From Cyanidioschyzon merolae (lineage: Eukaryota): DNA of 64,000 nucleotides. Positions 1 through 60,299 of this stretch are shown piece by piece (the stretch's first letter is position 1; each line of letters starts with the position of its first letter). Where the stretch lies: NCBI GenBank assembly GCA_000091205.1, contig AP006492.2; one strand, written 5' to 3'. The notes beneath the pieces were generated by a model. That model had not been told where the DNA came from. It saw only the letters and a list, made by a program, of their open reading frames with translations, and ran no database searches. The position numbers and the translations under genes were made by a program.

Positions 1-2279
1 CCGCATCAAAACGCTTCTTCTTCTCACCTTTGCTTGCTTGATCACCTCGCTTACCGGAAGGCCCGCCACCTGGTGGCAGGGACTGGCCGTTGCCCATGGA
101 AAACAAGCGCTGAGCAACGCTGCACCGAGACGCAAGCGCGTGCCGGTTCAGCGCAGCGGACGTACCGGCCCTGCCCAGGCCGAAGCGATGGACGCACAGC
201 GTTGTTGCCGCTGAAGTGTCGAGTGTCACCACACAGCGCTACGATGTCGCGCTTTTTCCGGGCTTATGGGGTACTCACGAGTTTATTTACGGGCGTGAAC
301 TGAGCGACAAGGTTTGCGTGGCGTCTCCAGTCGCTGGTACCGTGTGGAATAGGGTGTAGTTGGGGAAACGCAAGCACTACTCAGCAAGTGGCGCGGCGAG
401 TATGTGTGCGTTCAGCAGCGCGCATCTACCTCGAACTGGATTTCGACGGGCGCTCTGGCACACTGTACCACACGTATGTGGGTTCGGTAGAACGCGGGAG
501 TATCTGGGAGGGAAATCTTGTGTCTTTTGCTCGTTACTGACTGCGTTCAAGTTTTCCAGGGATCCTGTTGTGACGCGGCATTCCGTTGGCTTAAAAAAAA
601 GTCGTTAAGAGCTGAAAACTGTTAAGAAAGAGAAGTGATTTTTTGGTTAAGACGATCTTGAGGAAAAATACGTTCTTGTTCGGCTCGAGGCTGCAATTGT
701 TGAAAGCTTTGGCGAGAGCGCGCCGCTCGAGTGAAGGCCTCGACGCCAGCTTGCCACAACGTCATTTTGGACAAACTCGCAGTACGGGTCGGTAGCAATA
801 GAAAACTAGGTCGCGCTTGGTATGCCTGGCGGAAATGCAATCCATGTTGATCGTGAGTCTTGGTTTTCGACATTCGAGGTGTCCCGATAACTGTACCAAC
901 TGTCGCCGACGCTCCGAGTGGAAACAGGATGTTGACTTATCGGATACCTCTAGGGTTTCTACCTCGTTCTCGTCGCTAGCTGCTTTATAGACGTAATCCG
1001 CGGCTTTGTACGGTTTTCACGAAATACGAGCGTTTTGAAGCTTCCTTCGGGGCTTTGCGGCGACCGCCGCCGATCTACCACAGCAACGCTTTCGCCATGC
1101 GCCCTGACCATACCCGTGCACGCTTTCCAAAAGGACGCTCAAATTCTGTTCAAGGATTAGCAGCAATCGTCTATGGACTTGAACATAGGTTGAGTACGGA
1201 TCTATGCTCCGCAGCTGCCGCGAGCGCGCCCGGTGCAACGCCCGAGCACGTTACCTCGTGGGATGAGCGAGAGAATGCGCTCTCCGAGGCTCACGCTTTC
1301 CAAGCAAGCTGAGCGTTCTCCATACCTGGTAACAGCAAAGTCTTGCTGTAGCATCGATTTCACTAGACCGTGGCGGAGTCATCTGCCACGGACGACGTGC
1401 TCCAGTGGCGGTTTTCTGTCATGCGAAAAGATGGTGCTCGCGTATACCATGTCAGTATTGGTACATGTTCTGATTCGAATCTGAGCGGCAGATGAAGGTT
1501 CCAGCACGCTGCACAAAGAATCGTCTTCTCAGACGCTTGTTCTCACGACAGGTTAATCGCACATATTCTTACGCAAATGGCAATGATATGAAAGCAGCGC
1601 TTGTCTTGGAGTGCTTGGGGGCTCCCCGCACGCACCTCGTATCGGCGATACGAAAGTGATCCGCGTCTATGGCTACAACAAAGCTGTGGACAGCGTCCGG
1701 ACACGTGTCCACGGCGTCATGCGTGCGCAGGTCTGGTCCAAGTAGCATGCACCTGCACCGGACGTGCTTCGCGCCTACGAGGCTACGTCGAACGTCATTC
1801 ATGAAAGCACGATGTCATGTAAACGCCAAGACGCATCGCGACACGTTTGGAACCACGAATGCGATCTCGTGGGGATGTGTCGAGTGTCGGCAATGAAATG
1901 CTGTGCTGGTGTCAATCTATAGATCATCGCTTTATAACAAGTCGCGTCGAGCACCTCGCCCTGGTTAACGGAGTGATAGATGGATGCAAAGGCGTGCTGC
2001 CCCTGGCAACGTGGGTACACATCTTCACTTCTTTGTTCTAGCCCAAAACCACTGATTCGCTCGTATCCAGGTAGATACCTGGACTTCGATGTTCTCGATT
2101 CGGCGCTCATGGTGAGTATCTCTGAATGCAGCGCGCGGATCCAAAACAGCTCAAGGAGGTCGTCGCTGGGGAAAGCGGCTACCTGCAGACTGCGATTTTT
2201 CAGAGTGTTCTACCCGTTCTCCATTGGAGCATCACCGCCATTTCTTGACAAGAAAAAAACGAAGACCCAAGTGCGTCAT

Positions 2280-3212
2280 TTAGAACCGTTTTGCTGCCCT
2301 TCTCGCCACGAGCACTTGATCGAGCAGGCGTAGTGCCTCTGTACCGTCCTTGGGCAACGCATCGATCACAGCGTCGGCGCCTTCGAAGCTCTCAAAACGC
2401 GTGTAAGCACTCTTTGTCACGAGGCAGCATAATCCAGCTGCTTTCGCGGCTTTCACGCCAATGGCAGAGTCCTCAATCACAACGGTGTGGTTTGGATCCA
2501 ATCGCATCTGCTCTATCGCTAACAGGTAAATATCCGGGGCGGGCTTTTTCCGCGGGACCACATCACCCGCGAATACTCGTATTCTCGGAGCAATATCTGG
2601 ACCCAGCAAGTTCACAATTGCCTGTACTGCCTCCTCATTCGAAGTGCTACAGACAGCCACGCGCATGTCGGAACGTTCAAAAGCCCGCTGAATAAGGCTC
2701 GCAACCCCGACGCGCAGCGGTATCTCTCCGGCGTCCACCATTTTCATGAAAATTTCCGTCTTTCGTTTGTGCAATCGCTGTACCAGCTCACGCTGATCAT
2801 CTGGGGTTCGCGCGACGTCCGGCCAACCAACTTCGTTGAAGTGTGCTGTCATGCGCTCCTTCCCGCCACCGACTTCCAACAACTGGCCGTAGAGGTTGAC
2901 GTCCCAGGTGGCCTTCTCTTCATCGATACGAAACTCGCGAAAGGCGCGGTTAAACGCTACTCTATGACCGTCTCTTTCAGTATCAGCTAAGACTCCGTCG
3001 CAGTCAAACAGAATGGCACGCGTAAGCGGCAACACTGCCGTTTGTGACGTTCCAGCGCTGAACGCTGGGTTGCGGCCTGACGACGCTGCACACGCTCGAG
3101 TCCGCTGCAACCAATTCACCGCCTGCGGTCGCCTTGAACAACAAGAACGATGACCTCGATGCCGCACGGGCGTTGATGGCAATGCCAGAAACGCAGTATT
3201 GCTCAATACCAT
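2280..3212 (-). CDS. CbbY-like HAD-superfamily phosphatase, 310 aa, with a long S/T/R/A-rich N-terminal extension (possible transit peptide)
   Basis: HAD motif I FDCDGVLADTE within AILFDCDGVLADTERDGHRVAFNRAF, a close match to the plant CbbY xylulose-1,5-bisphosphate phosphatase N-terminus. Uninterrupted ORF. The start codon is ATG (rc of cat at 3210-3212). Confidence 0.8.
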   Translation of the reverse strand: MVLSNTAFLALPSTPVRHRGHRSCCSRRPQAVNWLQRTRACAASSGRNPAFSAGTSQTAVLPLTRAILFDCDGVLADTERDGHRVAFNRAFREFRIDEEKATWDVNLYGQLLEVGGGKERMTAHFNEVGWPDVARTPDDQRELVQRLHKRKTEIFMKMVDAGEIPLRVGVASLIQRAFERSDMRVAVCSTSNEEAVQAIVNLLGPDIAPRIRVFAGDVVPRKKPAPDIYLLAIEQMRLDPNHTVVIEDSAIGVKAAKAAGLCCLVTKSAYTRFESFEGADAVIDALPKDGTEALRLLDQVLVARRAAKRF

Positions 3213-8281: not shown

Positions 8282-9814
8282 TTAAATATCTAGGCCGCTC
8301 ACCAGCGGGCTGTTTCGCTCTTTCAGTGCCGTGATAACGGTGTTCACATCCTTGTCTCCTCGACCGGAACAATTCACAACAACGATCGGGCGCGCTCCTG
8401 CGGGAATCGTATCGTTGATGCGTTTCAGCGCTGCAAACGCATGGCTCGTCTCGAGCGCGGGTAGGATGCCCTCCAGTCCCGAGACCAACTGAAAAGCATC
8501 CAAAGCCTCTTCGTCTGTCACCGAGAGGTACTCTGCTCGCCCAGTGTCGCGCATAAAGGCATGCTCAGGGCCGACGCCTGGGTAATCGAGACCCGCGCTT
8601 ATGGAGTGCGCCTCTACGATCTGTCCATCGTCGTCCTGGAGCAAGTAGGACATGCTGCCGTGGAGGACGCCGACCGAGCCCTTTGTCAGTGTGGCAGCGT
8701 GTTCGTGTGTATCGAGGCCTCGACCTGCAGCCTCCACCCCAATAAAACGCACACTGGGTTCGTCCACAAAGCGGCGGAAGAGACCGATAGCATTGCTGCC
8801 GCCGCCGACGCAGGCCACCAAGATGTCCGGCAATCGACCAGGGCCGTGCCGCTCTTGCACTTGCTGGTATACTTCCTCACCGATCACGTAGTGGAAATCG
8901 CGCACCATGGCTGGGTACGGGTGAGGTCCGGCTACGCTGCCGACCACATAATGCGTCGTGCTTGGGTTTGTCACCCAGTCGCGGATGGCATCCGACAGCG
9001 CATCCTTCAACGTTGCCGTCCCGGTGTGTACGGGTCGCACTTCGGCGCCTAGCAAACGCATCCGAAACACATTCAGCTTCTGACGTTCCATGTCGCGGGC
9101 ACCCATGTACACAACGCAAGGCAGTCCGAAGCGTGCACACACGGTGGCGGTGGCAACACCATGTTGGCCCGCGCCCGTCTCCGCGATGATGCGGGTCCTG
9201 CCCATGCGTCGCGCTAGCAACACTTGACCGAGTGCGTTATTGATCTTATGGGCACCTGTATGCAGGAGATCTTCTCGTTTCAGGTAGATTTGCATACCAG
9301 ATCCATCCGGACGCGCAAAGTGAGCCGTGAGACGCTCGGCAAAATAGAGCGGCGTCGGTCGACCAGCAAAGTCTCGAAGCTGTTGTGCTAGCTCCTGTTG
9401 AAATGTCGGATCTTTTGAGACCTTTTTGTAAGCTTCTTCCAGCTCTTCAAGACACGATATAAGGGTCTCTGGCACAAACTTACCGCCAAAAGGCCCGAAC
9501 TTGCCACGCGCGTCCGGCACGCTCGACCGGTAGCGTCCAATGCGGCCGCGCAGGTCTGTCACGCGTTCTCCATGCTCGATCTCCTCGGGAACGACGTTTT
9601 CGGTCGCATTGTCCGCAGCCACGGAACGTTCCGGTGTCATGAGCATGCTAGGCAAGAACACGGTACGGGCAGCGGGGTTTTGCGAACGCGCACGTCGTCC
9701 AAGCGTGCGCCTGTTGTCCACGCTACGACCGCTGTTTCGCGTGAAGCGTTCTTTCGCAAGAAAGAAGCTAGTCGTGTTTGATAGTGGTGCGACAAACGCT
9801 GTGCAGTTTAGCAT
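8282..9814 (-). CDS. trpB: Tryptophan synthase beta chain (stand-alone TrpB) with an N-terminal extension of about 100 aa
   Basis: Hallmark TrpB motifs [31 protein letters not shown] and [11 protein letters not shown]. The conserved core starts near [18 protein letters not shown] start at 9812-9814. Confidence 0.9.
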
Positions 9815-9838
9815 TGTTGGATATCCGTTTCGTTCCTA

Positions 9839-12131
9839 CTAGGTACAGTGCAAAAAATCCAGTGTCAGCTGAAAAACAAAGAACGCCCTCAGCGTCGAAC
9901 GTCGCCGGTAGTGTGGAAGAATGGCGGTGAACGCGTCCGAGCCAAATCGTCTCGAACTGACGTGCAGACGCCTCCGCGTCTTTTTGGACCTGCCACCTAC
10001 TACTGCTTCCAACTTCTTCTCATATAATTCAACTTGAAAGCATTGTCCAACTAAATTCCTTCTTGTCCATTCTGGAGGTCTTTTCTCCTGCACTGCACAT
10101 CCCCGTATACTGACGGCGGCATTGAAGTCGCGGTTCACAAACTACATACGTTTCTCGCCATTTTTGGTACTTACCATGAAAGTAGTCCTCGAACGTTGGC
10201 CTTCCTTTCTATTTGCTCTTCCGTCATCGCTCCGTACTTTTTCATATCCGCAGGGCTCGGCTGGCATTTTTCTATCTCGACCCTCTGAAGTGTACACCCC
10301 AACACATGGTGCGTAAACGTTGTTCGGAACTCATCTACAGGTATCGTAACAAAACGCCGTGCGCACTCCTTGTACGTTCTTGTCGTTGGAGCTGGCGCAG
10401 TCCCTTTTTGGGTCTTCCATCGCCCTGCCCCATACGCTACTGAGAGCCTCTGACGTTCATCCTCCTTCAAGGCGCTCAACTGATTGAAAAAGTTGGCAAA
10501 CGCCCGCTGCTTCCCACAATACAAATTCATTCGCAGACGAGCCCACCGAGGCTTTGTATACTCCTCCCACAGTGCACCCCAATGAGCAACGAGAACTTCC
10601 ATGAATTTCCGAAAGGCTTGAAAGTCCGCTCCTCGGCTCGTGATCTCTCTCATAGCTTCCAGGTGATCCCTCAGTCCTGCAGTCCACGTCTCAATTTTTC
10701 TTGCATTCATGATTCCCGATTCTCGATAGTATCTCGCTCTCGAGAACCTCAAAAGACGCATGTCTTTCTGACGTAGCTTGCCGTCAATGCCATTTTCTGC
10801 ACGCTTGGGTACAGCGACGGCTATGATATTTGTGTTTCCGGGGTCCGCGCCAATGACAAAGTCATTATCCTCTACCTCCTGCGTCGCAGGATCCGCGTCC
10901 TTCTTATCTTCATGCTTCACCAAGGACAATATCGAGGACGGGCCAGGACGATCTCTCTTCAACCGCCGATAGAGTACACACATAGCTACTTCATCGGTTT
11001 CGATTATCCCAGTGAACTACGTTTGCTTGTTCATTTTGAGACGTTTGAAATCGAAGATATTCTTCCCGTACGTCTCCCGGTTTTCGCCGGTGAATTCCTC
11101 CCTGCTAACATTGAACTCCGGACTGATCTCCTTCATGATTCTGTAAAGGACAGCGGAGTCGATAGTCACAAAGTGTGACTTGATGTTGCACAACGGAACG
11201 ACGTTGAAGCGCTTCCCCATTAGGACAGCCTTCCATCTCTCCCATTCTTCATTTTTCCTCACTCAGCTTCACCTCTGCCTGGCGTTCGAGCTCTCGGTCC
11301 AGAAATACGAAATACCGCAGAATGAGGCGATAGTATCTTTCCGTATCTTTTTTCAACTCTGATATCTTTGCTGCGGGATTCGCCAGCCCCAAGAATGCAC
11401 GGTGCTCTTGTATAGCCGCGTGGATTACAGAAGCTTCATTCGTGCTCCTGCGTGGCGTCTTCTTGTGGACAAATTCGATCTCATCTTCATACTTTCGATC
11501 GTTGGTGATGCCATTGGTAATCGCCCATACTCCTTTGCGAGACAGGCCCGGGTATAGCGCAAACACGGCGCGTATCATGAAACGCTCCGGGTTCATAGTC
11601 AAATGGTTCCTCAGGTTCGTGAGTTACTCCATTGCCCCATAGTCGTACATACCCCCGTCACCCTTGTATCGAGTAAACTCAAAGGTGTAAATGGGATGTT
11701 TTTCGTGGAGGCCGTGAACCCGCTCATTTTCCCTCCGCGCTTTCTCTGTACCAAGCATCAGGCGGCGAATAAAGGTCATGTCGAAAACCTCATCCGGGAC
11801 CTCGACTGTTTCCATGTGCGCCACGTCTTCGTCTATCTCCCTCGCCAACTGTATCAGTCCTGACGACGCCCTGACAATACTCGTGGAGTACGAGTCGACA
11901 CGTTTTTTGATAGCGTCTCGCAACTTTTCCCTGTAGGGATCCTTGATTTGATTCAGGAGAAAGGCTTTCACCACCATCTCGTCCTACAGTTGTCTCTCTT
12001 GCCGCCTTCGATGTTGGGCCTCCCTCTTCGGTCCTTCTTCTCTTCCTTTTCTTCTGGACTAGGCAATGTTTTTTGTTTTTTCTGGCAGCCGGCGACCATG
12101 GGCCTGCAGGATCGTCGACTTGCTTTTTCAT
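9839..12131 (-). pseudogene. TnpB/Fanzor-like (OMEGA-type) nuclease pseudogene; largest member (copy C) of the composite repeat family; five consecutive minus-strand ORF pieces
   Basis: RuvC-I-like [17 protein letters not shown]. Fanzor-like GAGRWKTQKGTAPAP...VDEFRTT followed by HHVLGC...EKCQ (zinc-ribbon remnant). C-terminal NRDFNAAVSIRGCAV, the RuvC-III D-x-N-A-A-x-x-I motif. The N-terminal piece is basic and NLS-like (KKRKRRR). The reading frame is broken by an in-frame TAA at 11621-11623, an in-frame TAG at 11014-11016, a frameshift near 11249-11262, and a +1 frameshift plus TAG around 10139-10175. AT-richer than the flanking genes. Confidence 0.6.
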
Positions 12132-14919
12132 AGCAAGTCCACGATTTTTTTCGTTTTTTCGAGAAAGAACGCCCTTTGAAGCCTTCTGTTATGTATTGCG
12201 AAAAAACACTTGACAAGACTTGTTCGAAGTTTGAAACACAAATGAACTGAAAACTGTACTTGGATATGAAGTCAACGGAAATACATCTTTTACCTTAGGG
12301 CTACAAGCTAGAGATCAAGATCGCGTTTCCCTTCACCGGCGACATGCGCATAGCGTCAGTTGACTGCCTGATCTCCCAGGTGCGCTCACCGAGCGCGATT
12401 ATTCTTTCAGATGACAAAACGTTGACATTGACCATGGATCCCAGAATTCGGAATGGATAATGGCTTTCGGGAAAGCGTCCATGATGAAGCAACTACATCC
12501 AAGTTCCATTACCCATACTTCATCTCGGATATTCTGGTCGTTTCATACGTTCTGTCGTGTGCCGAGTGCCTACCGTGAGCACCCGCCGTAGCGCGTATAC
12601 CGCTGAAGCAGATGCTGCACGGAGACAGGACGGCGCTGCCGTACCGCTGAGGGCGTCGAACCGAGGCGCTTGTGGTGCATGCTGGTATGCCTGCGGCATG
12701 CTTTTTTCTGCCTCTATGCGTCCAAGGTACCGGCTTGTCCGACACTGCTATCCAGAGGAGCCTTCTCGCAGCTAGCCGTTCGCATATGTAACGTGAACTT
12801 GTTCACGCGTGCACCAGTGTGCTACTGAGACCAGCCAGGTACGCGCAGCTGGGTTCATGACGAACGTGTTTCATTTTCCCACTGAGCTCGGGCAATACGC
12901 AGATCGGCTCATACATGCTCTGGAACGCGCTGCGGAAGCGAACGCCGCCATTCTGTGGCTATCCGGGAGCAACAGCTGATTCGAGTTCATGGACTTTGGT
13001 ACAGCGCTCGGCTCCTTGTCAACGATGCTTGTCGTTGGCACCGAGGCTCGGCCGCTGTGCCTCAGTCGTTTGCAACGCGGCACCGAGAAGCGCGCTGCTG
13101 TACCATGTGTCACGAACGGGATGCGTGCGTTCGCACCAGGCACGACAGTGCACGCAAGCTGTTACGCATCGACTTCGGCGCTGCGGCCTCGGACGACTCG
13201 GCGTGCACGCATACCCACAGATGACGTGTACGTTGTAGCGTGCACCAACGACGACGTCGTTACCCTAGTTGTATATGAGATATACTCACCGGATTCCGAC
13301 TTGTATGTTTCGTACGTTCTTCATCAGGGATGTCAAGAACTGTAGTTTCAATGCCAGAGACACGAATCTGCAAACGTATTCGCGACTTTCCGAAATGTTG
13401 CTCGTGGCACAAGGTTAAACGTGCTCGAGCCGGTGCCTTGAGAGGCAGCGCAACGCCCTCGCATCACAATCTGACGTTTGAAGTGAGGTCGGCGCTCGGT
13501 GTATCTCAGGGCAAAGGCGTTCTTCTTTCGAGGAAAACCCGGCTGCGCTTGTTTGGTCCGCACTGGTGGGGAACGTAAGCTTCCCGACGAGAGCTGAGGC
13601 TCATTTGCTGTCTGCCAACTTTGGTGATGCATCCGAGGAAATCTGGTTCGATGCAGCGGCCTTGTATCAGCATCAAGCGCACGCTAGCGCTGCGGCAGCT
13701 GTTCGCGTTTCACTTGGCTGATTGCCTCAGCCGCCTGTATTCGAATGGATCACGAGCGTTGCTACGGTGATTTCGCTTGTACCGTAAGTCTTGGTCGTAA
13801 ATTGTTATCACGGCGCATGTCTGTGGGTTTGTTAGCGTCTCGATTCACGTAATGACATGGTGGGGATATTCGTTCTTCTTTGCCGTCGCCATTTTGCATG
13901 CCATATCCTGGGGTGGCCTATTCCAGAGCACGTGCCCAGACACAGCGCTTGCTGACGAACGATCGAAGGAATCCAAGCGCTTGTCCAAATCCGCATATGC
14001 AGGTGTGCCCGCAAAAGAGTGTCTCCAACACTCTCTGCGGCCATTTGTACGTTCTGTCGGCCTCAGCTCTGTAGTTACCCGATTGCATCGGAGCTTGATT
14101 GTTCCAGCAACGCTGCTCAATTGCAGTGTGAAACACTTGCATTGCTCTGACGTCGGATGCTGCTGAGATAGCGGGGAAGATCCGTGCCATTCTAGCTGAG
14201 ATAGCGAACGTTATGGTGAACTCCTGTCGAACACTTGTTCGGTATAAGGTGCGTTCCAGTACGACTCGGCGAGCGCTGCGCAGCTTACATCACTTTTCAG
14301 AAAAGAGACGTCGACGAACCCTGCAAGAATGACCGAGGCAGCGCAAAGAAAAAAAGCCAGCTAGCGTCTGGGTGACGAGGTCCAAGGCCTCGCTACCGAT
14401 CCCAACGCAGCTGCCAACTAAGAGATATTGCGAGAACCAGGTGAAAGGTTCAAAACTCGACTGGCAACACTCGTTTCAAATCAGCACACGCCGCAGTTGA
14501 TGTTGCTCTTCAAACGATTGCAAGCGTAACGAATCAGAGGAGCTGGTGGTTTTTACGTTTTCGCGTCGATTCGTCACACCACTTGCCTGTAGACATACGT
14601 AGCAACGGAGGCTGCTCCGTGTGCAATCACAAGAGCCGCGATCAGGGATGGCTATCTTCCAACGACTTGCAAAGCACCGTGACTGCAACACATGCGGCAG
14701 GGTCGACCGATGCCAGCAACAGCAGTTTCGCTTAGGCGGCCGCGGGCATGCAACCTGCGTCAGTTGCACTGCAGCCAGCTGTGCTTCCGCTCTGGCAACA
14801 GCGTAGGTGTGCGTGTGTGCGCTAAAGTTTACCGCACACGTAGCACATCAGGTACTTGAAGGGACTGCTTGGAAACCAAGCGTGGGTAAGAATTGGGACG
14901 GTTGAATTAATTGGTTTTC

Positions 14920-20898: not shown

Positions 20899-21899
20899 CT
20901 GCATGGCAGACGCTCGGACGATGGGTTTCATGGGCGCGTTCAGCTCCAAGCAATGGATTCAGAGGAGGAAGCGCACGCCCTTTGTTGTTGCCTGACTCGT
21001 AACCGAGAATGGGATTCTAAAGGTAACCGCATGTAAGCGTATAGATTCTGCGGACTTGATTGCATCACGTATCTGCCATGTTTACTGGGTCTGTTTGGAG
21101 AACAGCAAAAAGGACAAGGTATTCGAAGCATCTGCGGCAGGTGCCACACCAGATATTTATTTTGAGTGCCCTGTGCCGCTCGGGAAATTCCATCACAGGT
21201 GCCTATGATCGATTGTCGATTACACCATACCGAGTCCAGGTAGACAAGATAATATGTAAACCGTCCAGGAGGTGAATTGCCTGTGTATCTCGCTGGCAAG
21301 TATGTATGGCACTGGCCAGAATGTCGTTCTACATTCATTTACCCAGAACGACGGTGTACGCAAGCATGATATGATGATGGGTAGTAAACGATTTCACGGT
21401 TGAGCAACAGAGCTCCTATCGAAATCGTCTTCTTTCAGGTAAGTACTGACCACGAACGCGCCCCGGGTCTTTAGAACCTTTCAACGCTATTCTATTTCAT
21501 CCACGCTGACTGCAGTCAAATGCCTTTTGGCGCAGTGTATTGCATGAGACCAAGAACGATATCGAATGTAATCGATAGATAGAAGACGAATTGCGTGGAG
21601 GGTAAGTATATTCTACTGAAAAGTGTTACGAGGTTTGCATTGCTCCTTTGGGTCAGTCATACCTCAGTACTCTGATGCTTGAGGAACACTGAACGAAAGA
21701 CGTAGATGCACTCCGCTCGAAAAACCGATGGTCTTAAAGACTGCATGCGGACAATGGTAGAAAACACGACCTGCTTATCACCATAAAGAAAGCACAAGCG
21801 ACGATAATAGACGCCACGAGCGTCCCTGCGTCTCAACAGCTTATTCATGTCGTGGTGATAACACAGGGATACAGTCCCAGAAAAGAGTCCAAGTTCACG

Positions 21900-22760
21900 C
21901 AATGCCATATCCGACCGAAATCGCATCTACGAAAGGGTTCCTAGAACGTCGCTATCCGTCTAAAGCAGAAGAAGCTCGGTATGTTTTTTTGGTCGATGAG
22001 ACTTTCCTCGAACGGAATGGTCGGAGCGTACATGTGCATTCGCTGAGGGCACCGGTTGCATATACGATCGAATTCGAAGAGAACTAAGACGTCATCATCT
22101 TTCCTAGCTGCAATGGATTCATGTCGAGGCCTCAGTTTCGCAAGTTGAGATGGCTCATACAATAGCACCCTCTTCGTCGAATCATAGAAGACTTTTCGCT
22201 CAAGTCTGGCAACGTCCGCCTATTGAACAAGGCAGTATTTCACCATTGCCATTGCGTTTGGGCTTTTGCCAACGCAATCGAGATAGAACTGCCGTTCATT
22301 CCTCCGTACTCTCCTGGCTTCGATCCCACGGGAGAACTGTCTTCTATCATGAAACGTAATGATCAATCCACTGAACGAACCGCGGAAGCGTTCCGCACGC
22401 GGTGACACACTGGAGCACATTTCGTTTTCTTCTGCAATACCTCTACGCTCCGGAAATGTTCTCACCTTTGGGTGTAAACAATAACTTTCATTTTGAAAAA
22501 TAAGGAATGACCTGGGCTGTACACTTTTGAAGCTCAAGACGGAAGGCAGGCTGCGGGGCGCTTCGGCGAAAGAAAAGCACAGAGAGCCGAGAGAGCACCA
22601 AATGGCACGGAGAGCACGTGCTCGACGGCTCCTCGCATCGGAGAGTTCCACCAGATACAACAAACGCAAGGAGTTTATATGCGGAGACTACAACGGGGCC
22701 ATCAGTGTCAGACGATGTGCGGTGCTGGAGACAAAACCCGCGGAACTAAGGTGATCCGAC
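21900..22760 (+). mobile_element. Composite repeat copy A: IS630/Tc1-type DDE transposase remnant plus TnpB-type zinc ribbon/RuvC-III tail (degenerate)
   Basis: D1-like ARYVFLVDETFLERNG (ORF 21902..22087). D2-like LNKAVFHH, degraded from FDNxxxH. E-motif IELPFIPPYSPGFDPTGE, compared with IS630/Tc1 LPPYSPDLNPIE. LGC...LKLKTE zinc-ribbon remnant near 22500. Tail GDYNGAISVRRCAVLETKPAEL (ORF 22527..22754). The reading frame is broken. Confidence 0.6.
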
Positions 22761-23377
22761 TTAATGGGGCACCCTCTAAAGCTCTCGAAGTGTACACGGA
22801 TGAATGGAAGCTGGCGGCAGTCACCCGGTCGGAAAAAGGCTGGGAGGCGTCTGCGCGTGGATAGATATATTTACTATCTATCGACGTCAAACGTTTATCA
22901 TTTTACCGATCGTATAGAGCAGTCGCCTAAAGCAAGTGATACCCGCCGATGCGTCCCGCTACTTACTCTTGATCCCACATTCAGTGAGCACGAGTGCCTC
23001 ATGACCCGAGCAGCTCAAATATGCCTCCGAAACGACTGTAAGGAGAAACGAGCGATACACTGACTAACGAGCACAACCCTGCTTCCGTAACGACTGCATC
23101 GGTATACGAGCACACATAAAGCGTGAAACGGAGAAAATACGCTCTTACGGGATCCAAATACCCAGCCGGCTATGCGCCGCTGAAGAGCAAAGAAGCGCAC
23201 GGCACTCCGGAAAGCGACCTAACGGCGTAAGGTTGTCGTCAACACGCTCGCCTTTGCGAAAGTGGCAAGTCAGAGCGCTCCGACTCTTGGACAGGGTATC
23301 GTGGTCTTCTAGGTATCGACGATGTGGTGTGGCTTGCGTTGACTTTTCGGGTGTCTTCTACTGGAACTCGTATCCCG

Positions 23378-37726: not shown

Positions 37727-38949
37727 AGCCCTACGACCCAGTCGCACGAGAACAACACATATCCTCAGCGATACAATGCTTCAGGGCGCGTGCGGCGCCT
37801 TGGCTGGCACAGCTGCTCGGTGTACTTGTCCTCTGAGACTGGTGAGACGTGCTGTTCCTCGACGTCGTTGGCGGTACGGGTCTCATGTTTGGGCTTTTCG
37901 TATAGCTTAGGGGAATTTCATGCGTATTGAGGGATTGAATAGTCCATTTTGCATAGAAGAGTGATCGGAAATCATCCCAAAAATGTCCAGGGTCATGTAG
38001 AGTAGCGGATCGTCGTGATCGTTCACCAAGGGTGCAGGAGAAACTTTCAAGCCATTTCTATACGGTGCTTCAGACGTTCTGGATTGATGGATCGTACCAT
38101 ACGATTGCCTTGATCCAGATGGGAATGCGAGACCGCCTCTCTTCTGGTCGCTGATATTGTTTCATCGAAAGTCTTCAGCGTTTCAGGACGAAGCGAATAC
38201 TGAAATTCAACGATTTCCTGGAGCGTTCTCTCGATGCAAAGGCGATGCAAGTTTCCACGGCGCGATACATAACCCGGATGTCGATTGACGCTTTGATTTC
38301 CTGGTTCGGAAAGCGGTTACCCGCATTATGGCTGCTGGGATCATTCCACAAAGTGCTTCTCAATATCGAGTGCCTTTCCATATGACGATCGGTTAGCGTA
38401 CCATGCAATATCGCGTGCTTCCGATGCTGTCTCATGCGCTGCTGCTCTACAAGCTTCAACTCGTACGAGTGCTCGTGATGCTAATATGTTGTCCTGAACG
38501 TATCGAATAACATCGATTCCAGCATTCGTTGTACGCTCTTTTCGAAAGAGCAGCAGTGCAGCTCCTGTCGGCTATAGCACTGTTTGCGCTATAACCTGCT
38601 TCGAAACGAGCCGACCTATCGGTCGTTTCCTTTTCCAACTCATTGAGACAGTTGGTGAAGGCGAGTTTCTTGCCTTTGTATTCCCGAAATTGTTGCTGAC
38701 TGCCCAGCGCGTTCTCATGTACTCTCTGAGAGAAGCATTCAAAGCATCAGACTCTGCTCAATACGGCGCTCAGGGTGTCGAGACGGGCTCTGACGCTGTC
38801 GTTCCACTAGTTGGTGTGCCCCGTGGCCTTTATCATGCTCGAATCCGGACAAAACAGCGCTCTCGAAAAACACAGGTCACATTGCATCCTGTGTCCCGAA
38901 AATCATTTATGTTGTCGCATGGGGTTTTTATCGAAAAGTTCCAGACGTT

Positions 38950-40150
38950 TGTGGACAGCTGATAGACCAGGGTCCGCAAATATTGCGAATCGTTGCATGT
39001 CGAGGTGCATCAAGGTGCGAGAAACCCGGTGAGACTTTCTCGAGTTCGAAGCTCTGCGACCTCTCAAGGCGTGCTAAATCTTTTTGCTGTCACAAATGCG
39101 AACGACTAGCCTATGGACACGGTAGCGTCACACTTGCGTTTGCCAACAGAGATGACGCTTTCGACTGGATTCAGCCAGAGAGAATAACTCGGCAAGAAGA
39201 GCAGCGCAACGCCATTCGCAGTTGCGTGCTCCTCGACCGCTGCCGAGTGATGGACAACGACGTTGTCTAACACCAGGACAGAAGCGTGCAGGATGGAGAC
39301 GCCATAAAGTGCTTCGACGAAGGATGAGGTGTTGAAGGACTCTGTCTGATCGGCGATTTCCAAGCGACCGAACGACTGAATCACTGCTCGGAGTGGTGTG
39401 TTCCGAGCGGTCGTTCGTCTCCTCTTGACGAATCGCCATATACCCACTTTAAGTAATATAATGCAGGTCTACCATTGCTCCAGAATAAAGTCTCATCGAG
39501 CGAGACGAGCACCGCTGTTGTACGCGCTTGCGTTTCAGTACCAAATGAAAAATGTGTTGTTCTATGCGCGAAAGGCTCACACAGAACTCGTCATTTTTCT
39601 CTGTGTATTCCGTGTCTAATCATCCTTGCTGGCGTTGACGGTATGGTAATCTCAAATCTTGTGGCCTCTTTGATGGGATATCTTGCAGAATTCACAGAAT
39701 GGAATCAATCGACGAGAAGAGATTCCCCCCGACAGAGATTCATAAGATTTGTTCTGTTTGTACGACATTAAGGATGAGGACCACAAGAACGGCTGTTTAT
39801 ACACCAGCTAATCATAAAATAACAGACTCGTCCAATTCATTTTCTGAAGCTGGCGATGAAGGCTTCAAGTTCTTTCGCGGGCATGTACCAATCTTCCAGC
39901 TGCGTTCTGTCTGTTGAATACCTGCAAGAACAACGAACAAGAATAAAAACACGATGCTGGAATAAGTATTCTAGAATGCACAGCTCCAAGTTCGACGCCC
40001 AGAAAAACAAAACTTTTGCGTGCAGATAGCTCGGTTTCACACGCTGCACGCTGCGTCCGGGCCCCGGAACAGAGCAGCTTGTCGTGTTGTGCACAGCAGT
40101 TGCGGTATGGGTTGCTGGATGTTGAACTCTGCGGCTGGAGCGCACGACCG
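38950..40150 (-). mobile_element. Composite repeat copy 5: best-preserved IS630/Tc1-type DDE core plus a truncated RuvC-III-like tail
   Basis: ORF 39106..39447 reads ...SILHASVLVLDNVVVHHSAAVEEHATANGVALLFLPSYSLWLNPVESV. This matches the IS630/Tc1 (DDE_3) consensus vlvlDNasiH ... llfLPpYSPdLNPIE almost position for position. A D1-like ENELDESVIL lies near 39.80 kb. Tail remnant RHATIRNICGPW near 38.98 kb, compared with copy B DAAIHTRRCAVLKTGPW. Confidence 0.5.
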
Positions 40151-40699
40151 CGGGACGTTAGCCTCTGCGATGCTGCGTCTAGACCCAGAGCGCGGGCATT
40201 GCTTGACAAGTGCGAGGCGGTGGGACCACGAACTGGAAAAATTCTCGAATACTGCTGTGCGGTAGCGTGTGTGGACGCGCAGGCCAGGAGGTTCTTCTCG
40301 ACCGGCGGCCAGCGCGTCGACGCTTATCGCAGCACCGAGCCCGAATGACGAGATGAATCCCTGTTCTCGTTGACACTCGGAGCTCTCGGTCGGCAAGGTT
40401 GTTTACCGTTGAGCTAGAGCAGCGCAGAAGCGTCTCTCGGGATGACGCCCTGTTTGCAGCACGGCTGCCAGGAACGTAATGGCGGGATACTTTACACCGT
40501 ATCCGGGTGTCACCTAGGTCAACGGATGACGGTATCAGCGGCGATCGTATCGCAAGGCGAAAACTCAGTAGCCTCTACAGCGATATTCTCAGTGAAACAG
40601 AAAATGACCCACGGCCACGGAGTATGAGTATTTATACCCACCTGCAGACGTCTCCCAGTCTTTGTCGACCGGCCGCCTGCCATCGGCTTCAGTTTCTCT

Positions 40700-41650
40700 T
40701 TGTACACTTCGAACATGGGAGGCTATCCCAGGAATTTGAATGGTGTCAGCTCCCAGGGTCCCGTCTTCAGCACCGCACATCGTCTGGTATGGATGGCGGC
40801 ATCCAAGTCTCGATTCACGAAGTCCATGCGTCTACTGACATTGGTGGAGCTCATCAGTGCAAAGAGTCCACGAACTCGGGCCCTCTGTGCCATTTGGTGC
40901 AGTGCCAGCTCTCCGTGTTTTTCTCTTGCCGAAGCGCTCGGCTGCGCTCTCTCCATCTCGACCTTCTGTAATGGACACCCCAGCGCATCCATTAGATTCC
41001 CTACTTTTGAAAATGAATGCACTTGTTTATGCGCTTAGATGAGGAACCTCCCAGAGCGAGACGGCCTCGTACAAGAGAGGCGACATGTGCCTGGGTGTCA
41101 TCATGTGCTGAACGCTTCAGCGATTCGCTCAGTGCAGCGATCACTACTTTTCAGGATACAAAAATACTCCTTCGGCATGCTTGAACCACGAAGAGAAAGG
41201 AGGAATGAAAAGCATCTTTACCCCCATGGCATTTGCAAAGGCTCGAACGCGAGTAGAATGGTGGACTGCCACGTTGTCGAACACAGGAACGTCGCCAAGC
41301 GTCAGGGAAAGGTCTTCGATGATTCGACCGAGTGCTTGGTGCTGTTATATGAGCCTTCTCTACGAGCGAAGCTGAGGGCGCCGAATGAATCCAATGCACT
41401 TAGAACAGATGATGATATCATCGTTCTCTTCGGCTTCGATTTTACATACTACGTGCTCCCTGTTCCCCGAATACCCAAATACGCTCCGACCGTTTCGTCC
41501 GAGGCGATTCTGAATATCTGAAAAAAAGACGGACATGCCTAAGTTTTATAACGATCGCAAAGATCCAGAAATGCTGTAAGAGTTGCGATTTCGGTGGCAG
41601 ATGTATATGCTTGGACTAGGACTTTTTATTGCGACTGAATCGCAGTGTTT
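40700..41650 (-). mobile_element. Composite repeat copy B (inverted paralogue of copy A)
   Basis: D2 DVPVFDNVAVHHSTRVRAFANA (minus strand, about 41.27-41.20). Zinc-ribbon/tail ORF 40723..41022 reads MDALGCPLQKVEMERAQPSAS...ARVRGLFALMSSTNVSRRMDFVNRDLDAAIHTRRCAVLKTGPWEL. Manual alignment against copy C gives roughly three quarters nucleotide identity over about 170 nt. Confidence 0.55.
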
Positions 41651-42593
41651 TCAGCACTTTGCCAATAAGCTGTTGAGTGACAGAGACACACCTAGTTGCT
41701 ACTATCGTAGCTTTTGCTTTCTCTAAAGTGATCAATGGATCGTTTTCTACCATTGCCCGCAAACAAGCTTTGAGAATATCGGTTTCTGGCGCGGAGCGCC
41801 TCTACTCGTTTCTTTCAGTCTTCCTCAATCATCTGAGCATTGTACCATGTCTGGCCTTACTGAGGAATGCAGTCCTCGTTGCGCTGTTCAGTAAAGTATA
41901 TATATCCTCCAGGCAATTCGTCATCTATCTACACGGCACATTGCGTATTTTCTTCGATCTGCAGTTACTCTCCGCATCGGGGGTAAACCGAAAATCGAGA
42001 TGAAACGCAATCAGGGCGTGCATCGGCAGTCCATGGAAGTATTCCTGCAGTGCTCATCATAGAGTGCTGTCAGGAACCGTTTCCAGATCGCCTGGACAAC
42101 TTCAAAGCATCCCATAACTTGAAATGGTCATGCAGGTAGACGCTCTTGTGGTATCGTGCTTCCTTTCAAGTACGATCCCAGCGTAAGGGTCCCCAGACAC
42201 GAGCGCGACATGAAACGCGATCAATTCTGCCCCAAGTTTTGAAACCTAAAACCCGTGCATACCGAGTCCATGCCTCGTGTGTTGTGAAACACGAGTCCCT
42301 GAATGCTGAGCGTCGTTTCTGGACCCGCTGGCATGCCGGCTGGCGAACGACGCAACAAGGTACTCGACGGCGTCTTGGAGCCAGTGAAAAGGACACAGCG
42401 ACTTGCACGCGAAACCGGCATCGATTGAGGCCAGATACAGCTATCTTGGGGGTGGCAGGGTGTCGGTCCTCGTCACGCAACCGGCGTCGAGAGTCCAACA
42501 ATAAACGCTTTAGCGGAGACTGAAACTGTGCCCTCGGGGAGTTGTTTGTACCCAATCGGTTGGAACTCGAAAAACCAGGCGGTTGGTTTGATC

Positions 42594-59318: not shown

Positions 59319-60299
59319 CGATGCGATGCCAAGCGCGCCTGCGTTGTACTCAGTGTCTAGGGCGCAGCGGATGCGACGCACAGGTCGCTAGCGGCGCGCG
59401 TCTGGGCATCGAGTAGCGAGCCGACGCCCGCTGGGACATGGGAAAGCCGTACTTTCTCCGTTCTATGAGTGCACCAGCGCTCTAGTCGCTATCGCGGACG
59501 ATTAGGACAGGTACTCTACACATGGTAGAACGTGTAAAGCGACCAGAATATTCGAGGAGACGTATGGGTGATGGGATTTGGAAGACGGGCGTAGATCGAT
59601 GGATGCTTTACCACGCGCTCATATCGAGCGCGCAGTCGGGTAAAGCTGGCCGATATAACCATTCTTTCAAATAAAAACTCTGGAACTCCAGCGCGACAGC
59701 GGGCGCCGCAAGCACCGATACTGCGCTTACGACATAAGAGTTGCCGTGGCGCGGGAACTCAAGCATCTTTCCGCCTAGGTTTGTATTCGGGGTATTCACT
59801 AGTTCGTTAGAGAGTAGTGGACCACAACTGGCGCTCGTCTAGTGGAGTCGTGTCAAATGAGAATGGAATTCTGAACTGCTTGCTCTGTTCCTGCCTTTCA
59901 GTTTTTTAGAGCTTCTTTCGGACGTACAAATTTGACCTTACAAGTGCATCAAAAAGAACTTACTGGTTCATGTTTAAGTCTAGAATGTTCGGTGGTGTTT
60001 CCGCGGGGTGGTGCATTCGACGCTTTGCCGCTGGCATCCGTGACTTTATGGTCATCAAGATGATTCACAACGCCATCGAACAACATTTCGTAAACTAACT
60101 GACTGCGTTATCCAATGCAAACAAGCAAGTCGCCACGCTTCGCCTCTCCTTACGTGTAGCATGCTCGAATCACAGATTCTCCAAGTTTTCGATTATTCTG
60201 TTCCCAAGTCGCTCGTTGGCGCGGCGATGCGCGCCGCTGTATAGACGATGAAATAGTCTCAAAGGTGTCACTGGCAGACTTATTCACAAGACACGTGGC

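Follow-up and report, generated by a model that had tools for sequence, protein, structure and literature searches.

A decayed Fanzor-type nuclease gene, attributed to the CMe-1A element, in the nuclear genome of Cyanidioschyzon merolae

Layout of the locus

The window analyzed here, a 64,000-nt stretch of contig AP006492.2 (assembly GCA_000091205.1), is part of the nuclear genome of Cyanidioschyzon merolae 10D, and six of its ORFs match C. merolae 10D proteins exactly (BAM80310, 80312, 80315, 80317, 80319, and 80327). Its minus strand, on which all features of the locus described below lie unless stated otherwise, carries a decayed CMe-1A-type Fanzor1 unit at 9885..12399 (referred to as copy C), which corresponds by blastn to positions 648 to ~3169 of the CMe-1A consensus (Additional file 2 of Bao & Jurka 2013, PMC3627910), with its ends refined from multi-copy alignments. 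The unit begins with a conserved 5' leader of ~265 nt (12132..12399), which is conserved across six copies as far as a sharp boundary and includes a left-end hairpin, GCGCTC-GGT-GAGCGC (12396-12382; dG -9.8 kcal/mol), that none of 100 shuffles equaled in folding. The leader is followed by the ancestral Fanzor1 ORF (9938..12131; 734 codons in the consensus), whose start codon ATG (12131-12129) is conserved in six independent copies, and by a 3' tail extending about 55-65 nt past the ancestral stop (9885..9937). In other copies this tail contains two small hairpins, one of them with three compensatory pairs between subfamilies; both are degraded in copy C. Positions 9839..9884 are unique flank outside the element, and are read through because the ancestral stop codon TAG has become TCG (9940-9938). 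Positions 9937-9839 are therefore read-through beyond the ancestral coding sequence, which the first-pass annotation had taken to run down to 9839. The minus-strand ORF pieces that it had joined at 9839-12131 do form a single protein of ~730-750 aa, from six pieces rather than five.

On the plus strand, 13 nt from the Fanzor unit, a fragment of TE-N2_CMe (12410..12666) matches consensus positions 2-256 with 86.8% identity over 257 nt, in the orientation opposite to that of the published consensus. Multi-copy comparison revealed no target-site duplication or consistent flanking motif at the left or right ends, and no empty pre-insertion site that would define a duplication was found, the insertion being present in 12 of 12 long orthologous contigs. 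The intact ancestor would have been a ~2.5-kb unit consisting of the ~265-nt leader, one intronless 734-codon ORF, and a ~60-nt tail. The mobile Fanzor unit proper may comprise only consensus 648-3169 and be separable from TE-N2_CMe, which may adjoin it in either orientation, and the unit may end in short hairpins instead of terminal inverted repeats (TIRs).

Relationship to CMe-1A

Positions 648-3126 of the CMe-1A consensus align with window positions 12397-9922 at 84.6% identity over 2,489 nt (blastn), and the frame-corrected copy C protein is 78% identical over 731 aa to the 734-aa CMe-1 Fanzor1 protein. CMe-1A was described as present in ~150 copies per genome, each ~80% identical to the consensus and without TIRs, and was the only Fanzor family of C. 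merolae in that census (Bao & Jurka 2013, PMC3627910). The published copy-to-consensus identity agrees with the 78-82% pairwise identity among the CMe-1A copies compared here. With similarity to most of the consensus and C. merolae as its host, the locus at 9885-12399 is almost certainly a fossil copy of CMe-1A, the multicopy Fanzor1-encoding element of this red alga. Besides the inversion of the TE-N2_CMe part, copy C differs from the published element of the same species in being dead and in missing consensus positions 257-647. Publication of the family in 2013 already covered its copy number, consensus DNA, and reconstructed 734-aa protein, which makes the earlier suggestion that the element was worth recording moot. 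As to family size, there are 258 related loci in hot-spring metagenomes and 2,346 protein clusters at 50% identity.

Catalytic motifs and the zinc-ribbon region

The RuvC-I motif lies at 10822..10860, and its catalytic Asp (codon 10845-10843), in a column invariant among 64 family members, aligns with D383 of SpuFz1, the proven omega-RNA-guided DNA endonuclease of Spizellomyces punctatus (PDB 8GKH, 9CEU-9CEZ; PMC10432273). Further along, VAYGAGRWK (10414..10440) has an invariant Gly (10431-10429) at the canonical RuvC-II Glu position, as does SpuFz1. In the rearranged RuvC-II of Fanzors, a Gly or Pro occupies that position and an alternative conserved Glu lies downstream (Jiang 2023, PMC10530073), an arrangement given as 'G500/E536' by Bao & Jurka 2013 (PMC3627910). 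VDEFRTT (10318..10338) supplies this relocated Glu (codon 10332-10330; invariant column), which stands 33 residues past the Gly and aligns with SpuFz1 E541; the Gly of VAYGAGRWK marks the Fanzor-type rearranged site. The RuvC-III motif NRDFNAAVSIRGCAV (10091..10135) has invariant R, D, N, and N columns, and its Arg-Asp codons are intact in copy C (10132-10127), the catalytic Asp (10129-10127) aligning with SpuFz1 D606. The catalytic D/E/D codons thus survive in copy C and align residue for residue with D383/E541/D606, the catalytic residues named in Saito 2023 (PMC10432273); in CMe-1 the three fall in DPG, DEFRTS, and NRD respectively. All motifs quoted in the first-pass annotation, including RuvC-I, VDEFRTT, HHVLGC...EKCQ, and RuvC-III, are present at the mapped coordinates.

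HHVLGC (10311-10294) and EKCQ (10272-10261) together span 10261..10311, the site of the usual CCCC zinc ribbon in Fanzor1 and TnpB, and were previously taken for a zinc-ribbon remnant. Only HH...C...C is present in this region of copy C, and a CxxC after the TS dipeptide was found in none of the 64 clade representatives, nor in copy C or the CMe-1 consensus. The CCCC zinc finger of SpuFz1 (CPRC ... CTNPNC) is missing from CMe-1, which lacks all four cysteines, and C942/C945/C980/C985 of SpuFz1 align with non-Cys residues. The region is not a decayed ribbon: neither the intact consensus nor any of the clade has the canonical CxxC...CxxC. A C4 zinc finger (OrfB_Zn_ribbon) between a [TS][TS] dipeptide and RD was part of the 2013 motif, but Bao & Jurka 2013 (PMC3627910) themselves filed CMe-1 as Fanzor1; the finger is thus typical of Fanzor1, not universal. 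Its absence appears to mark an atypical Fanzor1 sub-clade and does not overturn the homology, and the whole CMe-1 clade may form a Fanzor1 branch that lacks the canonical CCCC finger.

At the other end of the protein, the consensus N-terminus is basic (GKKRKT, KKQKREARRQR), as are those of homologues, and an N-terminal nuclear localisation signal (NLS) occurs in ~60% of Fanzors (Jiang 2023, PMC10530073). The basic N-terminus proposed earlier holds for the consensus, but the 'KKRKRRR' string cited for it is out of frame, an artefact of reading in the frame created by the deletion at 12082, where the ancestral sequence is SPEEKEEKK.

Profile and structural evidence for Fanzor1 membership

A profile built from an alignment of 64 family sequences (representatives at 50% identity) matched only three proteins among 177,635 PDB sequences, namely Parasitella parasitica Fz1 (PpFz1, 9CF0; E 1.1e-21), SpuFz1 (E 9.2e-15), and Guillardia theta Fz1 (GtFz1, 9CER; E 1.2e-10). 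These alignments extend from REC to the C-terminus, beyond the RuvC motifs, and those with PpFz1 and GtFz1 cover REC through RuvC-III. Copy C itself scored E 2e-166 against the profile. The evidence on fold comes from P0001, a close intact homologue, rather than from the broken copy C. Its AF2 model, based on the same alignment (pLDDT 82.4, pTM 0.80), had only Fanzor1 structures as its top seven Foldseek matches in the PDB (E 1e-16 to 9e-14), including SpuFz1 (E 1e-16; TM 0.72, normalised by target length), PpFz1 (E 2e-15), and GtFz1 (E 9e-14), and its best Cas12 match was at E 6e-3.

An AlphaFold model from only 13 aligned sequences was unusable (pLDDT 33.6), a shallow 14-sequence profile and the frame-corrected copy C protein (phmmer) had no match among PDB sequences, and Pfam on individual ORF pieces returned nothing at E <= 1 apart from chance-level matches. 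Precomputed matches to DUF8286 on homologues were weak, and a further protein search with the deep alignment recovered essentially the same close clade, with no named proteins.

[quoted passage not shown] The lack of a significant Fanzor match, named in the first-pass annotation as refuting, was not borne out, as there is such a match. Together the profile, fold, catalytic alignment, and 84.6% identity to CMe-1A support its central reading, that copy C, lying in the nuclear genome of an alga, is a nuclease gene of TnpB/Fanzor type in decay, with a basic N-terminus.

Lesions and decay

Alignment to the published consensus shows that copy C carries four premature stops and four frameshifts without compensation, besides having lost its stop codon, and the gene is dead. 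Two 1-nt deletions (~12082 and ~12032) flank an AG-rich tract at 12032..12082, and are followed by a premature stop at consensus codon 50 (TAC>TAG, 11984..11986), a second at codon 170 (TAC>TAA, 11624..11626), a frameshifting 2-nt deletion (~11257, within 11255..11258), a third stop at codon 373 (GTA>TAG, 11017..11019), and, within 10142..10177, a 1-nt deletion (~10177) with the fourth stop (GAG>TAG, 10144-10142). Just downstream of the codon 373 stop, the conserved TDGV motif reads TDEV (10998-10987), and a compensating +1/-1 pair lies at 10042/10036. The first-pass annotation had counted four interruptions, overlooking the three N-terminal lesions (the deletions at ~12082 and ~12032 and the TAG at 11984-11986); its TAA (11621-23) and TAG (11014-16) were each placed 3 nt off.

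We compared 13 orthologous haplotypes, i.e., this genome and 12 independently assembled metagenome haplotypes. Three of the four premature stops, that at codon 50 among them, and the lost stop codon are common to all 13, and the codon 170 stop occurs in this genome only, the 12 metagenome haplotypes having TAC. Variable sites per kb number 25.8 in the element, 2.0 in the TrpB coding sequence (CDS), and 14.7 in other intergenic DNA. Copy C cannot make the protein, given the stops, frameshifts, lost stop codon, Gly>Glu change in TDGV, and degraded terminal hairpins, and neutral changes have been building up in it from a time before the sampled populations of C. merolae split.

Alternative explanations

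One rival reading, favored by the presence elsewhere in the window of DDE_3 transposase relics, each beside a Fanzor-like fragment, is that copy C is a plain Tc1/mariner (IS630-type) DDE transposase pseudogene instead of a nuclease gene. The chance of this is vanishingly small: the window's own DDE relics, used as tblastn queries, have no match in 9800-12700, no piece of copy C contains a Pfam DDE domain, and the full length aligns to Fanzor1 proteins and structures. The profile, structure, and tblastn results refute this reading, and the search for plain Tc1/IS630 similarity suggested at the outset found none in copy C. It is likewise highly improbable that copy C is still alive as a gene, its apparent stops and frameshifts being spliced out with introns, bypassed by programmed frameshifting, or due to sequencing error. 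Introns are known in some Fanzor genes of other eukaryotes (PMC10530073), and a GTAAGT...TAG stretch occurs at ~10175-10143; however, this candidate intron is only 33 nt long, and its removal leaves the frame unchanged and then meets a TGA, so we rejected it. The premature stops stand in place of conserved sense codons of the consensus (Y, Y, V, and E) and not in inserted stretches, the 12 independently assembled haplotypes carry the same lesions, polymorphism in the element is ~13-fold that of the neighboring CDS, and no protein is annotated between BAM80312 and the next genes.

A dead Fanzor1 copy could still have been co-opted as regulatory DNA, for instance by supplying or shaping the promoter or 5' UTR of TrpB (BAM80312), whose ATG (9814) lies on the same strand ~70 nt downstream of the element's 3' end (~9885). 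Each of the 13 haplotypes carries the insertion, and at three other loci (L002, L003, and L005) a same-strand host gene begins within ~200-550 nt of the end of the called Fanzor ORF. We consider co-option unlikely, as the element is at least as polymorphic as other intergenic DNA, which speaks against constraint along most of the element, and proximity to TrpB is expected by chance in the compact C. merolae genome.

Proposed mechanism and the omega-RNA question

The product of the intact ORF would be a Fanzor1, a eukaryotic homologue of TnpB and Cas12, with a basic NLS-like N-terminus, helical REC/WED regions, and a split RuvC whose predicted catalytic triad consists of Asp (GADPG), the relocated Glu (VDEFRTS), and Asp (NRD). 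Judged from its homologues SpuFz1, PpFz1, and GtFz1, it would bind an omega-RNA transcribed from its element's 3' end and then cut guide-matching DNA beside a short target-adjacent motif. The omega-RNA has been demonstrated for SpuFz1, whereas the RNA and the RNA-guided step are inferred for CMe-1 from this homology. In TnpB-type systems such RNA-guided cutting helps the element persist.

A conserved omega-RNA-like region of 200-300 bp downstream of the ORF, as anticipated in the first-pass annotation, is absent, conservation of the element ending ~65 nt past the stop codon. RNAalifold on the 3' ends of 60 copies gave no consensus structure, Rfam had no match, and the fold of the 3' 237 nt of the consensus is marginal (z = -2.0; 11 of 200 shuffles at least as good). 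The right-end hairpin, with its compensatory changes between subfamilies, would be consistent with a single-strand mechanism like that of IS200/605 or Helitron2, or alternatively with the 3' stem of an omega-RNA.

Comparison with other RNA-guided nucleases

Sequence identity between SpuFz1 and CMe-1 is about 14%, and the 30-nt inverted repeats of SpuFz1 elements (PMC10432273) have no counterpart in CMe-1A. PpFz1 and GtFz1 differ from CMe-1 in their insertions and lengths, and have kept the zinc-finger cysteines. Bacterial TnpB (IS200/IS605, IS607) and Cas12f have the RuvC-based architecture in common with CMe-1; through the RuvC-III motif NRDxNAAxNI, 16 of the 64 clade members matched PF07282 (Cas12f1-like TNB) weakly, and Cas12f and other Cas12 proteins were weak structural matches (E 6e-3 to 0.3). 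Compared with bacterial TnpB and Cas12f, CMe-1 has a relocated catalytic Glu, a much larger REC, and a basic N-terminus, resides in a eukaryotic host, and is without an adjacent TnpA.

The biochemistry of Fanzor1 has been on firm ground since 2023, and copy C adds little as a discovery. The main use of the locus is to show neutral Fanzor decay in a clean and dated case, with three of its four stops and the lost stop codon common across populations and one stop strain-specific. CMe-1 comes from a thermoacidophile and is without the usual zinc finger, and its intact consensus could reveal whether the finger is dispensable for RNA-guided cleavage; the consensus protein is also a candidate heat-tolerant compact editor.

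Relation to copies A and B

The first-pass annotation had assigned copy C to the same family as two other regions of the window, copies A and B, on the basis of high nucleotide identity over its C-terminal 170 nt. Blastn of copy C with the remainder of the window gave no match to either region, and nucleotide identity in a MAFFT alignment is 58-63%. Copies A and B are instead DDE_3 (mariner-like) transposon relics carrying a Fanzor fragment, and belong to a different family. Relics of this kind, combining DDE_3 and Fanzor sequence, lie in the window at 21576-22869, 38274-39408, and 40629-41931. Four points would add to the 2013 description, i.e., the bounds of the unit, its hairpin ends, the clade without a zinc finger, and the DDE_3-fused lineages; taken jointly, they are possible, though somewhat doubtful as a set. 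As to the last, each DDE_3 transposase relic in the window adjoins a Fanzor-like fragment, and C. merolae may also hold relics of one or two more Fanzor1 lineages fused to DDE_3 transposons.

Assignment of copy C to the Fanzor1 family

The element at issue, copy C, occupies window positions 9885-12399 on the minus strand, with an ancestral ORF from 12131 to 9938. The first-pass annotation had joined five ORF pieces at 9839-12131 into one protein; the pieces are indeed consecutive and on the minus strand, but there are six of them, spread over three frames. All the motifs it had quoted were found in the window sequence, on the minus strand, including RuvC-I (10860-10822), VAYGAGRWK (10440-10414), VDEFRTT (10338-10318), HHVLGC and EKCQ (10311-10261), and RuvC-III, NRDFNAAVSIRGCAV (10135-10091). 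No annotated protein covers 9839-12131 in the C. merolae 10D record. Six other window ORFs exactly match annotated proteins of strain 10D, among them the tryptophan synthase beta chain (TrpB, BAM80312), which is encoded on the same strand as copy C at 8282-9814 (PALP, E = 8.5e-42).

A word-indexed protein search with the frame-corrected translation of copy C returned 35 clusters, all from hot-spring metagenomes and with identity up to 62-75%; the only Pfam label on these homologs was a weak DUF8286. Scanning exhaustively with HMMER and a small profile yielded 2,346 clusters (at 50% identity), of which 371 had E ≤ 1e-30; these relatives are usually 600-650 aa long. Among 64 aligned full-length sequences chosen to represent the diversity of the family, no columns are invariant apart from the D in DPG, the G in AYG, the E in DEFRTS, and the R-D-x-N-x-x-x-N in NRDxNAAxNI. 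The profile of these 64 sequences matched only three of 177,635 PDB sequences, all of them Fanzor1, from Parasitella parasitica (E = 1.1e-21), Spizellomyces punctatus (SpuFz1, E = 9.2e-15), and Guillardia theta (E = 1.2e-10), and the alignments span the REC region through the C-terminus. The family DPG, DEF, and NRD positions lie opposite D383, E541, and D606 of SpuFz1 (residues counted in the printed alignment, with an MBP fusion offset of 394), which are its metal-coordinating catalytic residues (Saito et al., PMC10432273). A Gly occupies the canonical RuvC-II position, with a Glu 33 residues further downstream, an arrangement described as the “rearranged catalytic site” of Fanzor (Jiang et al., PMC10530073) and as the Fanzor1 hallmark “G500/E536” (Bao and Jurka, 2013, PMC3627910).

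For structural comparison, a largely intact metagenome homolog of 752 aa (P0001) was modeled by AlphaFold in place of the broken copy C. With the 64-sequence alignment the model reached a pLDDT of 82.4 and a pTM of 0.80 (pLDDT 33.6 with a shallow alignment). The best seven Foldseek matches in the PDB were Fanzor1 structures only (E = 1e-16 to 9e-14; TM to SpuFz of 0.72, normalized by target length), followed by Cas12 proteins at E ≥ 6e-3, and 16 of the 64 clade members touched Pfam PF07282 (Cas12f1-like TNB). By sequence and fold homology and the conserved catalytic triad, the protein family of copy C is therefore Fanzor1, which bears out the first-pass reading of a TnpB/Fanzor-type nuclease. 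That reading also survives comparison with a plain Tc1/IS630 transposase, as copy C has no DDE similarity to the DDE relics of the same window. By analogy with SpuFz1, PpFz1, GtFz1, and TnpB, an intact protein would be an omega-RNA-guided dsDNA endonuclease, whose activity would help its element persist. The initial observation was thus largely right and its interpretation right.

A cysteine-containing stretch had been taken for a decayed Zn-ribbon. SpuFz1 has the finger CPRC...CTNPNC, a conserved CCCC motif common with ISDra2 TnpB (Saito et al., PMC10432273), whereas neither copy C, nor the consensus of the published C. merolae protein CMe-1, nor any of the 64 clade representatives has the canonical CCCC finger (CxxC...CxxC). 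Since the whole clade lacks it, its absence from copy C is a lineage trait and not decay. The only widely conserved cysteines in the clade are those of “LLWC”, between DEFRTS and NRD (45/64 representatives; lost in CMe-1), and of “NIRRC”, after RuvC-III (56/64; retained in copy C). Directly before RuvC-I is an acidic unit of 25 aa (75 nt; window ~10860-10935, CMe-1A consensus ~2110-2190), of which copy C and the consensus each have one. Some other copies carry it in tandem (one to four or more; P0001 and two further homologs, P0007 and P0008, loci L001 and L002), and the repeats are disordered in the AlphaFold model.

Relationship to the published CMe-1A element

Only one Fanzor1 family, CMe-1A, has been listed for C. 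merolae. Its roughly 150 copies each show ~80% identity to a 3,169-bp consensus, which encodes a 734-aa protein (CMe-1), has no TIRs, and corresponds in its 5' 635 bp to another repeat, TE-N2_CMe (Bao and Jurka, 2013, PMC3627910). Window positions 12397-9922 are 84.6% identical to positions 648-3126 of this consensus (taken from Additional file 2 of that paper) over 2,489 nt, and the protein, once frame-corrected, shares 78% identity with CMe-1 across 731 residues. Copy C thus belongs to a multicopy mobile element and is a known, ordinary transposon fossil of a family published in 2013, and the ancestral reconstruction proposed for it has in effect already been done at the sequence level.

The published consensus itself appears composite. 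Among 59 copies, 30 begin at ~648 with no adjacent TE-N2, 15 have TE-N2 contiguous with the Fanzor unit, and in 14, including copy C, a piece of TE-N2 lies inverted no more than 600 nt away; therefore the Fanzor unit proper seems to be consensus 648-3169. At copy C, a TE-N2_CMe fragment (consensus 2-256) lies on the plus strand at 12410-12666, 13 nt from the Fanzor unit and inverted relative to the published consensus; a second (also consensus 2-256) lies on the minus strand at 59417-59640.

Decay of copy C

Relative to the CMe-1A consensus, the lesions of copy C (all minus strand) comprise 1-nt deletions at ~12082, ~12032, and ~10177, a 2-nt deletion at ~11257, premature stops at 11984-11986 (TAC>TAG), 11624-11626 (TAC>TAA), 11017-11019 (GTA>TAG), and 10142-10144 (GAG>TAG), a compensating +1/-1 pair at 10042/10036, and a lost stop codon at 9940-9938 (TAG>TCG); in addition, it reads TDEV where the family has a nearly invariant TDGV. 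The first-pass list of four interruptions overlooked the three N-terminal lesions (~12082, ~12032, and 11984-11986), and two of its stops (TAA 11621-23 and TAG 11014-16) are present, although placed 3 nt off. Its “KKRKRRR” N-terminus lies in a frame made by the 12082 deletion, the ancestral sequence being SPEEKEEKK; the genuine N-terminus is nonetheless basic (GKKRKT and KKQKREARRQR in the consensus). Nor does coding sequence extend to 9839, as bases 9937-9839 are read-through into ~55 nt of element tail and then unique flank. A candidate 33-nt intron, GTAAGT...TAG at ~10175-10143, was rejected, its removal keeping the frame and meeting a TGA.

The orthologous TrpB locus was found on twelve metagenome contigs at 99.2-99.35% identity; all twelve carry the insertion, and none shows an empty, pre-insertion site. 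Three of the premature stops, along with the loss of the stop codon, are common to all 13 haplotypes, and the TAA at 11624-11626 is TAC in every other haplotype. Because these lesions are common to all and one stop is unique here, the gene was dead before the sampled populations diverged and its decay is ongoing; copy C is inactivated and drifting neutrally. Over the same 13 haplotypes, the TrpB CDS has 2.0 variable sites per kb, and the element (9885-12399, compared with loci L087-L102) is more variable than the remainder of the intergenic region it lies in (25.8 vs. 14.7 per kb), an excess possibly due to gene conversion among the ~150 paralogs or to metagenome assembly cross-talk.

Element ends and terminal hairpins

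From 258 related loci, 80 were fetched, and multi-copy alignments gave sharp boundaries at both ends, the left beginning CGCGCTCGGTGAGCGC at 12397 and the right ~65 nt past the stop codon at ~9885. The conserved block of 200-300 bp sought past the ORF (below 9839) is not there; that interval holds unique sequence and TrpB. CMe-1A units end in short hairpins, not inverted repeats. The 6-bp left-end hairpin, GCGCTC-GGT-GAGCGC, is intact in copy C (12382-12396, minus strand; dG -9.8 kcal/mol) and has dG ≤ -4 in 14 of 22 unique left ends. Two small hairpins lie in the 3' tail of other copies, and both are degraded in copy C. The terminal right-end hairpin (e.g., at loci L021, L023, L059, L051, and L072) occurs in two versions, CGTTCGA-CTT-TCGAACG and AACGTTTTTC-TTTT-GAAAGACGTT, which differ by three compensatory base pairs, and a hairpin with dG ≤ -4 is retained in 31 of 42 copies.

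CMe-1A carries no transposase gene and lacks TIRs. The end hairpins could be a structure recognized by a transposase, would fit single-strand transposition of the IS200/605 or Helitron2 kind, or could represent an omega-RNA 3' stem. No omega-RNA was identified for CMe-1A by any of three approaches: RNAalifold on 60 copies gave no consensus structure, the fold of the consensus 3' 237 nt had z = -2.0 (11 of 200 shuffles folded equally well or better), and an Rfam search returned nothing.

The TrpB start codon lies ~70 nt downstream of the end of the dead element, on the same strand (9814-9885), and at loci L002, L003, and L005 a same-strand host gene begins within ~200-550 nt of the end of the called Fanzor ORF. 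The nuclear genome of the red alga C. merolae is compact and has almost no introns, and this closeness may simply reflect that compactness.

DDE_3-linked Fanzor relics in the same window

Two composite relics lie at 21576-22869 (plus) and 40629-41931 (minus). In each, a degenerate DDE_3 transposase of Tc1/mariner-like type (PF13358; E = 2.7e-6 and 8.8e-6) runs straight into the final ~115 codons of a Fanzor1 gene, and the two relics share 68.6% identity over 1.3 kb (21576-22869 vs. 41931-40629). They are probably the two regions (copies A and B) that had been placed in the family of copy C on high nucleotide identity. Their C-terminal Fanzor fragments (22507-22731, plus; 40640-40988, minus), both starting at consensus position 2737, are just 58-63% identical to copy C at the nucleotide level and were not recovered by blastn from it; in this and in their DDE_3 linkage they differ from copy C, and they are not CMe-1A. 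In a third relic, at 38274-39408 (minus), the DDE_3 remnant is clearer (E = 2.8e-15; C-terminus ...VLVLDNVVVHHS...LPSYSLWLNPVES) and is directly followed by a longer, more divergent, and decayed Fanzor1 remnant from RuvC-I (FAIFADPG) onward, with ~28% amino-acid identity to CMe-1. Mariner-type Fanzor carriers are known in other species (Bao and Jurka, 2013, PMC3627910), and the three relics are such carriers rather than CMe-1A. That survey lists a single Fanzor family for C. merolae.
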